Below are positions 21,600 to 33,787 of a stretch of 64,000 bases of DNA, piece after piece. Where the stretch lies: the NCBI GenBank assembly GCA_963841915.1, contig CAWJEN010000006.1, positions 256,001 through 320,000 of the forward strand, given 5' to 3'. The position numbers and the translations under genes were made by a program. The first letter of the stretch is position 1, and every line of letters starts with the position of its first letter. A model generated the notes under the pieces. It worked only from the letters and a program-made list of their open reading frames with translations, had not been told where the DNA came from and searched no databases. Source of the stretch: an uncultured Planctomycetota bacterium. Lineage in GTDB: Bacteria > Planctomycetota > Phycisphaerae > Tepidisphaerales > Tepidisphaeraceae.

Positions 21600-21674
21600 T
21601 CGGGCTGACAGGATTCGAACCTGCGACCTCTTGACCCCCAGTCAAGCGCGCTAACCAAACTGCGCCACAGCCCG
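21600..21674 (-). tRNA. tRNA-Pro(GGG)
   Basis: Cloverleaf CGGGCTG...; anticodon arm CTTGA-CTGGGGG-TCAAG; T-loop GGTTCGAATCC. Confidence 0.96.
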
Positions 21675-27899: not shown

Positions 27900-28580
27900 G
27901 TGCACTGGGCCTTTGACGAAGTCGCCGACGCTGTAGGCCGTGCGTTGGAACAAGCCGAGGCTGATTTGCGGCTGGAGCAGGCGGTGTACGGGCTCGACGC
28001 AATGAAGGAGGTGCCGTTGCAGGGCGTCCTCGCCGACGGGCTATCGGCGTCGGGATTCTGCAGCGTCACGCGTGAGGCCCATTACCCGTCGGATCTGTCA
28101 AAGAAAAAGCCCGGTCGGCGGCGGTGCGACCTGGTGCTGACGAAGCCTGGCACGTCGTTGCTGCAGGCCGATGCGGTCGACCTGTTCACGCCGACCGACG
28201 CCTCTCCGCCCGGTGAGGCGTTGTGGCTGGAGGTGAAGGTCGCCCACCAGTTTGCCGAAGGTGGCAGACGGCACAGCGGCTACGGCGAGCAATGGCGTGG
28301 TGCAACCATACGCGACCTGCAAAAGATGGAGACCGAGACCGCTGTCCGTGAGGCCGGTCTGCTGCTGATCGCCTTTACCGGTGACGAGGCGACGGTGGAC
28401 AGTGACCTGGAGCTGTTCGAGACGGTGCTGGCCCGCAAGGAGGTGCTTGCCGGGTTCCGCCAGGTGCGTGGGTTGCCGATCCTCGAACGCAACGGCCACA
28501 CCCGCGTGACGGCAGCGCTCTGGCCGACGATTCAGCGACCGGCCGACCAGACGGCACAGCCGCTCGATTCCGCACCGTGA
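27900..28580 (+). CDS. Hypothetical protein with a PD-(D/E)XK-like signature
   Basis: REAHYP...RCDLVL...LWLEVK...DL.K pattern. Confidence 0.6.
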   Translation: MHWAFDEVADAVGRALEQAEADLRLEQAVYGLDAMKEVPLQGVLADGLSASGFCSVTREAHYPSDLSKKKPGRRRCDLVLTKPGTSLLQADAVDLFTPTDASPPGEALWLEVKVAHQFAEGGRRHSGYGEQWRGATIRDLQKMETETAVREAGLLLIAFTGDEATVDSDLELFETVLARKEVLAGFRQVRGLPILERNGHTRVTAALWPTIQRPADQTAQPLDSAP

Positions 28581-28612
28581 CGCAAATGGACGTCGCTGGT
28601 ACGGTTCGAGAC

Positions 28613-29203
28613 ATGTTCGACACCACCAACCGCTCCTGGATCTCACTCGCTGCCGCCTCTGCCCTTGTCGTCGGCGGGCTGACGCTCGTCGGCTGTGACG
28701 ACGGCGACGAATACGAAGGCGATGCCTCTGCGCCTGCCGAAAGGGTCGACGCGCCGGACGTCGGCGAAGAGTCCTTCAATGCTGCCGACTTCGCCGAAAA
28801 GGCTGGCGAAACCGCAAAGGCGGCCGTCGCCGATGTCAAGAAGGAGATCGACGAGGTCATGGCCGGCGACGGCACGGCTGCTGAGAAAATGTCGTCGCTC
28901 CTCGAGACCGGTCAAGAGCGGTTTGCCTCACTCAGCTCCAGCTTCAGCGACGACGGCGACGAAGCCACCGGTTCGTTCTTCGGGTCGCTCAATGACAAGT
29001 TCGACGGCCTGAAAGAAGCCGTGTCGAGTAAGAACTACACCGGCCTGGCGTCGCAGTTCTCGTCGCTGCAAAACCTCGAGATCCCGGCCGCGGCCAAGCC
29101 TTACGTCGAGCCGTACATGGAGAGCATCAAGGGTTTGATTCCCAAGCTGACGAGCGGCAACATCGGTGAGGCCGCCGGTAAGCTGCTCGGTGGTGGCGAG
29201 TAG
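28613..29203 (+). CDS. Hypothetical lipoprotein
   Basis: Hydrophobic signal ending LVGC, followed by an acidic, helical body. Confidence 0.7.
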   Translation: MFDTTNRSWISLAAASALVVGGLTLVGCDDGDEYEGDASAPAERVDAPDVGEESFNAADFAEKAGETAKAAVADVKKEIDEVMAGDGTAAEKMSSLLETGQERFASLSSSFSDDGDEATGSFFGSLNDKFDGLKEAVSSKNYTGLASQFSSLQNLEIPAAAKPYVEPYMESIKGLIPKLTSGNIGEAAGKLLGGGE

Positions 29204-29251
29204 GCGTCCCTCTGCCGAGGGTTTCCGTCGCAGTCTCATGAAACCCAGCCC

Positions 29252-29285
29252 TCGCCCGCGCATGAACAATGCGTGGGCGATTTTT
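29252..29285 (+). terminator. Rho-independent terminator of the lipoprotein gene
   Basis: TCGCCCGCGCAT-GAACA-ATGCGTGGGCGA-TTTTT. Confidence 0.75.
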
Positions 29286-29405
29286 GTGGACACTGTTGAT
29301 GCCCAACGGTCGGCACAGCCGACATAACCTGCAGGCAGCAACGTTAAACTTCACAAAGCGTTCGACCGAGACAAACCCGATAACTAACAAGTTGTCACAC
29401 GACCA

Positions 29406-29433
29406 TTGACAGACACCCACGCCCCCGTATGAT
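29406..29433 (+). promoter_or_regulatory. Sigma70-type promoter
   Basis: TTGACA-N16-TATGAT within an AT-rich intergenic region. Confidence 0.7.
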
Positions 29434-29439
29434 AACTTG

Positions 29440-29549
29440 GGCAAGATAAACGGGACGCAGCGGCAGCAACAACGGCTCGCTCGCGACCCACGACGGCGCA
29501 TTTTCTCCCCTCCGGAAGACACCGACCCTCACGGGCGGTGTCTTCTTTT
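29440..29549 (+). ncRNA. Candidate small RNA (~110 nt)
   Basis: Lies between a strong promoter and the terminator GAAGACACCG...CGGTGTCTTC-TTTT; no ATG-started ORF; has a 5' hairpin and a single-stranded CU-rich tract. Confidence 0.6.
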
Positions 29550-29619
29550 GGTTTCTGCCGTCGTCCAGCGCAGCACGACAATCACCCTATAACGCGGGTT
29601 GCGTGCACATCTGAGTCGG

Positions 29620-29979
29620 TCAGCCCGGTGGCCACGTCAGGTCGCGACCCGCCAGAACGTGGACGTGCAGGTGGAACACGGCCTGCCCTGCCGCCTCGCC
29701 TGTGTTGATGACGGTGCGAAACGCGTCGTAGCCCGCTGCCTTGGCGACATTGCCGGCGACGACGAGCAGGTGTCCCAGCAGCGGAGCGTCGTCTACCGCC
29801 GCCTGCGCCAGCGACACTATCGGCCGCCTGGGCACAACCAGCACGTGCAGCGGAGCCTGCGGATCGATGTCCCTGAATGCGATGCACTGTTCGTCTTCGT
29901 GAACGATGTCGGCCGGGATCTCGCGGTCGATGATGCGCTCGAAAAGTGTCTTGTCTAACGGATGAGAAGAGGCGGCCAC
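29620..29979 (-). CDS. hinT: Histidine triad nucleotide-binding protein
   Basis: TLFERII.REIPA, FRDI.PQAP.H.LV and GQ.VFHLHVH motifs; start uncertain. Confidence 0.93.
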   Translation of the reverse strand: MAASSHPLDKTLFERIIDREIPADIVHEDEQCIAFRDIDPQAPLHVLVVPRRPIVSLAQAAVDDAPLLGHLLVVAGNVAKAAGYDAFRTVINTGEAAGQAVFHLHVHVLAGRDLTWPPG

Positions 29980-30083
29980 AGCCTCATGGTGACAGACGCG
30001 CACCGCTGCTGCCACGGCACAAACCCGTCAAGCCGGGCACCGCCCCCGCAAACCCCGCGCGGCACCGCTACTGTGCCCTCACG

Positions 30084-32266: not shown

Positions 32267-33787
<1,521 letters not shown>

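Follow-up and report, generated by a model that had tools for sequence, protein, structure and literature searches.

Two genes flank the feature described here in the 64,000-nt stretch of DNA that was analyzed (the window). Upstream, an ORF at positions 28577 to 29203, which had no Pfam match, ends before an intrinsic terminator of its own on the plus strand (29252 to 29290), in which a 12-pair stem with 8 GC pairs (29252 to 29280) is followed by TTTTTG; downstream, a HIT-family (hinT-like) gene (PF01230, 90.3 bits) occupies positions 29620 to 30015 on the minus strand, as a convergent syntenic neighbor outside the RNA. Since the upstream gene has its own terminator, the unit that lies between the two genes is set apart from that gene. 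This unit is headed by a plus-strand sigma-70-type promoter at 29406 to 29433, TTGACA-16-TATGAT, which matches 11 of 12 consensus positions. The surrounding 2-kb region contained three promoter-like sites, compared with a mean of 0.4 in shuffled sequences, and TTGAC-N17-TAnGAT occupied the same place in the alignment of family relatives. The upstream terminator and the promoter had both been part of the original prediction for this DNA, and both were recovered.

The interval from 29438 to 29551 on the plus strand is, with high confidence, a previously undescribed small noncoding RNA (sRNA) gene of about 113 nt, with a predicted start near 29440 and a 3′ end within a U-tract. The only plus-strand frame over the sRNA was a 51-amino-acid TTG frame at 29437 to 29592, which runs through the terminator. 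No plus-strand ORF was conserved among 82 relatives, the longest frame being shorter than 10 codons in 38 of them, in agreement with the earlier claim that the roughly 110 nt held no credible ORF. At the gathering score, Rfam returned two tRNA genes for the whole window (21600 to 21674, minus strand, and 32267 to 32339, plus strand) and nothing else. Rfam 15, including SRP, 6S, tmRNA, RNase P, and known sRNAs, gave no match in 29150 to 29700 even at an E value of ≤10; this was the search that the original prediction had proposed, and it bore out the view given there that this is no known housekeeping RNA. The locus thus has the features of a free-standing sRNA gene: a promoter of its own, a same-strand intrinsic terminator, and no ORF that is conserved. 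The independent plus-strand gene that had been foreseen is supported by this promoter and this terminator. A single full-length copy was found in the source genome by the covariance model introduced below (G000:C6:285438-285551, 71 bits, E value of 1.3e-19).

The intrinsic terminator of the sRNA, at 29514 to 29549 on the plus strand, consists of a 13-pair helix and a U-tract; the hairpin GGAAGACACCG...CGGUGUCUUC spans 29514 to 29546 and is followed by UUUU. It was called on the basis of minimum free energy (MFE) folding and covariation, the terminator scan having missed the hairpin through its loop limit. Read on the minus strand, the hairpin leads into CCGGAGGGG and lacks a U-tract, as expected from the claim of a second terminator whose U-tract is on the plus strand only. 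In the 82-sequence alignment A1, the terminator helix was paired in 99.8% of 1,065 cells, compared with 46 to 70% in slid controls. Covariation among relatives, which had been suggested as a check, was also found: 6 of the 13 terminator pairs showed compensatory changes within the family, a number reached by none of 500 shuffles, and in 12 distant members from the class, 9 of the 13 pairs were compensatory. The basal pair of the helix is G-U in 82 of 82 family sequences and in 12 of 12 distant members, and a further G-U pair occurs in one locus (L004). In a minus-strand transcript, these G-U pairs would become C-A mismatches; the pairs, the U-tract, and the two promoter motifs (the second of which is described below) jointly fix the plus strand as the one transcribed.

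The same evidence bears on a minus-strand interpretation, in which GGAGGGGAGAAAAUG would supply the Shine-Dalgarno (SD) sequence and start codon for a small protein or leader peptide encoded downstream of hinT, and the hairpin would serve as a regulatory stem at the 5′ end. The reverse complement, GGAGGGGAGAAAATG, does read as a textbook SD sequence, a 5-nt spacer, and an ATG, and a 131-amino-acid minus-strand frame lies at 29127 to 29522. However, the frames behind this ATG span only five to eight codons in the short-form relatives and are not conserved, and the complement of the ATG is lost outside the order, where the sequence is GAGUUUUCUCC. Moreover, the basal G-U pair in all 82 sequences and the other G-U pairs would become mismatches; the orientation of the T-tract, of the two promoter motifs, and of the 5′ leader is in each case that of a plus-strand gene; and hinT is a neighbor in just 8 of the 20 loci examined. 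A minus-strand element is therefore hardly credible.

The neighborhoods of the sRNA also speak to the idea that it is a cis-acting piece, either belonging to the upstream gene, as its terminator or as an RNA derived from its 3′ untranslated region (UTR), or acting as antisense to a read-through hinT mRNA. Among the 20 loci, which included L005 to L020 from relatives, the HIT-family gene was downstream and convergent in 8, and since the hairpin offers no U-tract to hinT, transcription running through from that gene would yield an RNA perfectly antisense to the sRNA. In 10 of the 20 loci, the upstream neighbor on the same strand is an acyltransferase gene (PF01553), and in two loci (L006 and L113), the seed-plus-terminator module directly follows the stop codon of a coding region and is without a promoter motif. 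Against a cis role, the neighbors vary between loci, the promoter motifs are conserved in most of them, and the upstream gene in the window is a different gene that has no Pfam match and carries its own terminator. On balance, a cis-acting origin for the element appears very unlikely. The modules at L006 and L113 may be 3′ UTR-borne versions of the same RNA.

For the plus-strand sRNA itself, the predicted structure of the 115-nt RNA had an MFE of −46.1 kcal/mol (z = −2.52). The RNA opens with a 5′ leader at 29438 to 29450, UGGGCAAGAUAAA, for which the family consensus is UAGGYAA..; in A1, G4 and A8 of the leader were invariant, and T2, G5, and A7 were conserved at ≥90%. The MFE structure places a hairpin of variable sequence (hairpin 1) at 29452 to 29489, consistent with the 5′ hairpin drawn in the original prediction. 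This hairpin is expanded in the genus of the window, whereas most relatives have a short GCGC..GGCGC hairpin there or none. All seven long-form sequences in A1, from genus relatives and others, folded a stable hairpin 1, each from a different sequence, and the hairpin was not recovered by RNAalifold on the MAFFT alignment. Hairpin 1 is followed by an invariant core at 29493 to 29513, ACGGCGC-AUUUUCUCCCCUCC, which includes the putative seed at 29500 to 29513, with TTTTCTCCCCTCC located at 29501 to 29513. The functional core of the molecule is UUUUCUCCCCUCC (or close variants), an invariant pyrimidine-rich stretch with the terminator directly after it. Across A1, the anatomy comprises TTGAC-N17-TAnGAT, the UAGGYAA leader, a variable hairpin, the invariant GGCGCAUUUUCUCCCCUCCGGAAG, the covarying stem, and the U-tract, and the usual length of the RNA is about 84 nt. 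The mean unpaired probability of the seed was 0.62, compared with 0.41 for the rest of the RNA, and exceeded 0.8 in 11 of the 82 sequences; where paired, the seed is predicted to partner the purine-rich 5′ leader. The unpaired CU-rich stretch that had been noted at 29501 to 29513 is thus present and is the most conserved part of the molecule, but it is predicted to be only partly free.

The RNA proved to be widespread. A BLAST query of 29400 to 29560 against 60 relatives, comprising 36 same-family and 24 other-family genomes, matched the 3′ half (29493 to 29549) at 81 to 100% identity in 30 of the 36 same-family genomes, each from a different genus, and gave no match at an E value of ≤1e-3 in the 24 genomes of other families. 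One of the 36 same-family genomes (G006) is unpublished; nothing concluded here depends on that genome by itself. An exact scan with a 19-base core, using one genome per species, yielded at least 119 stretches; the matches listed were nearly all labeled Tepidisphaeraceae, Tepidisphaerales, or Phycisphaerae, and they included a copy in the isolate Fontivita pretiosa B-254 (L082). Together with the earlier loci, the listed matches amounted to at least 121 distinct sequences, all of which had a hairpin and a T-tract except L069, L083, and L133; these three lack the hairpin and look like chance matches.

A covariance model (R1) matched 73 of 151 sampled Phycisphaerae genomes at an E value of ≤0.01, unevenly by family. 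Matches were found in 18/20 genomes of family f1, 8/8 of f4, 14/14 of f13, 6/6 of f18, 5/7 of f10, and 10/20 of f5, and in 1/19 of f2, 0/16 of f3, 0/7 of f7, and 1/7 of f12. In a sample of 151 genomes from the phylum, R1 matched four: the source genome itself, another member of its class, and two genomes with weak matches (24.6 and 22.8 bits), which were the only ones outside the class. The word “orphan” in the original prediction therefore does not apply, given the BLAST and covariance model results: the RNA is a new sRNA family, of a known kind, spread through the Phycisphaerae (Planctomycetota). A literature search for Planctomycetes and Phycisphaerae sRNAs and for the core sequence, with supplements and subscription journals outside its scope, returned nothing on this RNA. 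Distant members retain UUUUCUCCCCUCCGG, or UUCUUUCCCCUCCGG or UUCUCUCCCCUCCGG, across the class while the stem sequence changes. Furthermore, the f13 genomes carry two or three sibling copies that have the same stretch, GAGUUUUCUCCCCUCCG, and unrelated terminators. That the stretch is kept while stems and terminators differ indicates that the single-stranded stretch is the constrained functional unit. In one genome (G062), which had seven model matches in total, degenerate copies of seed and terminator (L221 and L222, at G062:C52 and G062:C13) lie inside a repeated element that shares flanking sequence.

A second promoter motif was present farther upstream in most family members. CCGAT occurred upstream of the sigma-70-type promoter in 80 of 91 family loci, mostly 65 to 72 nt before the 5′ motif of the RNA, and a sigma-28-type motif preceded the RNA in 69 of the 91. 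The motif was derived from these 69 loci, chosen for a CCGAT 55 to 100 nt upstream of the 5′ motif; they share a fixed partner 17 nt before CCGAT (T in 65, A in 63, and G in 65 of the 69), preceded by A/T-rich sequence. A position weight matrix (PWM) scan of the whole genome gave 23 matches above 14 bits, and the top intergenic matches lay upstream of the genes for flagellin, FliW, and FlgM (Pfam confirmed), with the same motif and spacing as in the family loci. Further instances were found before a rod gene and before a third flagellin gene. FliA is encoded in the source genome (248.6 bits, above the curated cutoff). The elements match the −35 TCTAAAG and −10 GCCGATAA given for the Pseudomonas aeruginosa fliC promoter, with 16 nt between the two G's in the present lineage versus 14 in the promoter as given there (PMC12784957).

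The motif extends to other families, where TAAAG-N16-GCCGA[AT] occurred in 8 of 16 loci, all from AT-rich families, starting 43 to 45 nt before the seed; by our own rough estimate, about 0.02 occurrences per locus would be expected by chance. No sigma-70-type promoter was found between the motif and the seed in these loci, and in several AT-rich families, nothing else resembling a promoter accompanies the motif. If the published distance from −10 element to start is applied, the RNA in the AT-rich families would have a length of about 60 nt and a start about 7 nt ahead of the seed. At the window locus, the corresponding plus-strand element at 29354 to 29384 (CAAAG at 29354 to 29358 and ACCCGATAAC at 29375 to 29384) is degenerate: 17 nt separate the G from the position before CCGAT, compared with 16 in the family consensus, and the element scored below 14 bits in the PWM scan. 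Of the two, it is therefore the sigma-70-type promoter that is credible at this locus. Overall, promoter sequence makes it probable that the sRNA family is wired to sigma-28. The family may have begun as a member of the late-flagellar (FliA) regulon, with the Tepidisphaeraceae later gaining a second, sigma-70-type promoter, which would be the only one that still looks intact in the source genome.

Flagellin genes were found in 114 of the 151 class genomes, with a distribution that does not mirror that of the sRNA. In f7 and f12, all seven genomes of each family had flagellin and the sRNA was present in 0/7 and 1/7, respectively; in f5, the sRNA was present in 10/20 genomes and flagellin in 4/20. 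In addition, four f5 copies from genomes without a flagellin match had no sigma-28-type motif close to the RNA. With co-occurrence unclean and these copies lacking the motif, the function of the RNA cannot be purely flagellar.

Two flagellar loci of the source genome, both outside the sRNA locus, had features of their own. A fliW-csrA-flagellin cluster (G000:C5:764151-767449, L217) has sigma-28-type motifs before fliW and before the flagellin gene, and the leader of the latter is 329 nt long with repeated GGA. The third flagellin paralogue (G000:C6:1201317-1202819, L263 283-1785), which lies outside the window, opens right after a TGA stop codon and has no ATG, GTG, or TTG before its conserved N terminus (..HIRIVSNIPSL). 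A sigma-28-type motif lies 85 nt upstream, and if translation began at an ATC codon that lies 5 nt downstream of a strong GAGGGGAGG, the product would start with MRIVSN.., resembling the MRINTN.. of a paralogue; the gene has no close orthologue elsewhere (31 to 34% identity). It has either a noncanonical start or is a dead gene.

As regards mechanism, the seed is complementary to start regions of the GGAGG, GGAG, and GGAGAAA types. The 3′ end of the 16S rRNA of the source genome is ..CACCUCCUUUCU, and CCUCC is common to the seed and the 16S tail. The likeliest of the mechanisms considered, which on the sequence we give an even chance of being correct, is anti-SD pairing: the RNA would act in trans, without Hfq, and its CU-rich seed would pair with purine-rich SD regions (GGAG, GGAGG, and GGAGAAA-like) and so block translation initiation. 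No Hfq match (PF17209) was obtained at an E value of ≤0.01 in the source genome, which is 93.8% complete, and the RNA accordingly does not classify as an Hfq-dependent sRNA. CsrA is encoded in the same genome, between FliW and flagellin.

Target searches used rough in-house gene calls and start sites (2,993 genes). A 7-mer complementary to the seed occurred in 39 of the 2,993 start regions, compared with 16 to 66 for 20 shuffled patterns. Thus, of the earlier anti-SD seed claim, the complementarity to GGAGG-type sites stands, together with the CCUCC shared with the 16S tail, but no enrichment of seed complements in start regions accompanies it. The longest exact seed complements, of 13 and 12 nt, lay at the start sites of two genes, one encoding a subtilase and the other a PEP-CTERM protein; about six such 12-mers would be expected by chance (our own estimate), neither is a conserved housekeeping gene, and both were rejected as targets. 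Duplex energies, calculated in this single genome both for all seed-complement sites and for start regions, were dominated by G-rich noise and uncertain starts and were rejected as evidence. In five AT-rich f13 genomes, no recurrent target was found; the perfect matches were sibling sRNA genes, and the matches with two mismatches had no gene in common. Among the flagellar start regions of the source genome (rod, hook, and flagellin), just one flagellin paralogue had a 9-bp seed complement, namely, the GAGGGGAGG before the third flagellin. The flagellin start regions of 18 other family genomes showed weak seed pairing and no conserved target. The family flagellin start regions share a GUCAYGGAGAGAC hairpin, which we take to be of the CsrA-site type. 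Target prediction, another of the checks that had been proposed, therefore gave no conserved target, either from duplex energies or from exact complements.

These negative results, together with the length of the conserved stretch, speak for a protein-binding or decoy RNA. In that case, the partner of UUUUCUCCCCUCCGG (17 invariant nucleotides) and of the terminator base would be a conserved RNA-binding protein, for example a ribosome-associated factor or a protein that binds pyrimidine tracts, instead of mRNAs. An invariance of 15 to 17 nt across the whole class exceeds what most seeds need, seed complements are not enriched in start regions, and no conserved target was found. Furthermore, CsrA is present and lies in a flagellar cluster, and GGA follows the seed in most members. 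The RNA has just one such GGA, however; it sits at the base of the helix rather than in a loop and is replaced by GGU in L179 and the f5 copies. Siblings keep the single-stranded stretch and swap the hairpin, a pattern typical of pairing seeds, and no candidate protein co-occurs with the RNA or adjoins it, the neighbors being the acyltransferase and the HIT protein. We consider a protein-reading role unlikely.

The genes with the most SD-like starts were also examined. GGAG precedes the start codon in just about one-tenth of the called genes of the source genome, and the most SD-rich class comprises the approximately 100 genes whose products end in a PEP-CTERM sorting signal, identified by regular expression. 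GGAG was present in the start regions of 44 of 100 PEP-CTERM genes and 274 of 2,893 other genes, and GGAGAAA was present in 11 of 100 and 5 of 2,893, respectively; GGAGA, too, was enriched in the PEP-CTERM start regions. PEP-CTERM signals were found in 149 of the 151 class genomes, with or without the sRNA, and in a genome free of the sRNA, the PEP-CTERM start regions contained GGAG in 13/24, GGAGA in 7/24, and GGAGAAA in 2/24 cases. Given that the signal is near universal and that the same motif occurs in a genome without the sRNA, the pattern says nothing specific about the sRNA, and a PEP-CTERM regulon was dropped as specific support.

A more ambitious proposal, which we regard as improbable, is that a class-ancestral, FliA-fired sRNA works as a global switch, silencing the small SD-led share of the proteome in swimming cells. 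The flagellar sigma factor would fire the sRNA at the end of flagellum assembly; the sRNA would carry a longer version of the anti-SD sequence that the ribosome itself uses; and its targets would include one or more flagellin paralogues along with the approximately 100 surface proteins of the PEP-CTERM type. If true, the Planctomycetota would thereby gain their first characterized regulatory RNA.

Taken together, a Phycisphaerae sRNA family that pairs in trans with SD sequences, free of Hfq, and that originated in the FliA regulon is the best overall explanation, and we lean toward it, if only slightly beyond even odds. According to a table in a 2022 review, the Planctomycetes-Verrucomicrobia-Chlamydiae group as a whole has just eight annotated sRNAs (PMC9029176). 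With its invariant seed, covarying terminator, siblings, and recognizable sigma-28-type promoter, this class-wide sRNA offers an entry point to posttranscriptional control in the Planctomycetota. A cultured carrier for experiments exists in F. pretiosa B-254, and the sigma-28 promoter motif obtained for this lineage provides a means of mapping the late flagellar regulon there.

The C/U-rich anti-SD sRNAs of Firmicutes and alphaproteobacteria, RsaE/RoxS, LhrC, and CcsR, are Hfq independent and carry several short C-rich motifs in loops, and some genomes hold several siblings. The RNA described here resembles them in its G-free pyrimidine-rich stretch complementary to GGAGG-type ribosome-binding sites, in the presence of several sibling copies in some genomes, and in its apparent Hfq independence. 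It differs in having a single linear stretch of 13 to 15 nt beside the terminator, in lacking Rfam homology, and in that no candidate target was conserved. Alternative-sigma-driven sRNAs of the RybB/MicA type have their seed at the 5′ end. The RNA of the AT-rich families, predicted to be about 60 nt long with a seed about 7 nt from the 5′ end, the terminator directly after it, and an alternative sigma factor, would be similar to these, although the sigma factor and the phylum differ and no Hfq was found; in addition, about 60 nt of leader, hairpin included, precede the seed in the window's copy.

Sigma-28-dependent sRNAs, expressed along with late flagellar genes, have been described in two other systems. 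Campylobacter CjNC1 and CjNC4 are Hfq-independent sRNA paralogues with predicted pairing to 5′ UTRs (PMC4626219), and the FliA-driven UhpU, MotR, FliX, and FlgO of Escherichia coli tune flagellar and ribosomal genes (PMC10578931). The RNA described here has no sequence relation to either set (Rfam, E value of ≤10), and some nonflagellate genomes keep it. The E. coli RNAs are UTR derived and Hfq bound, whereas the present RNA is free standing in most loci and no Hfq was found. A sigma-28-type motif precedes the present RNA in most relatives and would predict FliA dependence for it, and sibling copies, which recall the CjNC1 and CjNC4 paralogues of Campylobacter (PMC4626219), occur in the f13 genomes.
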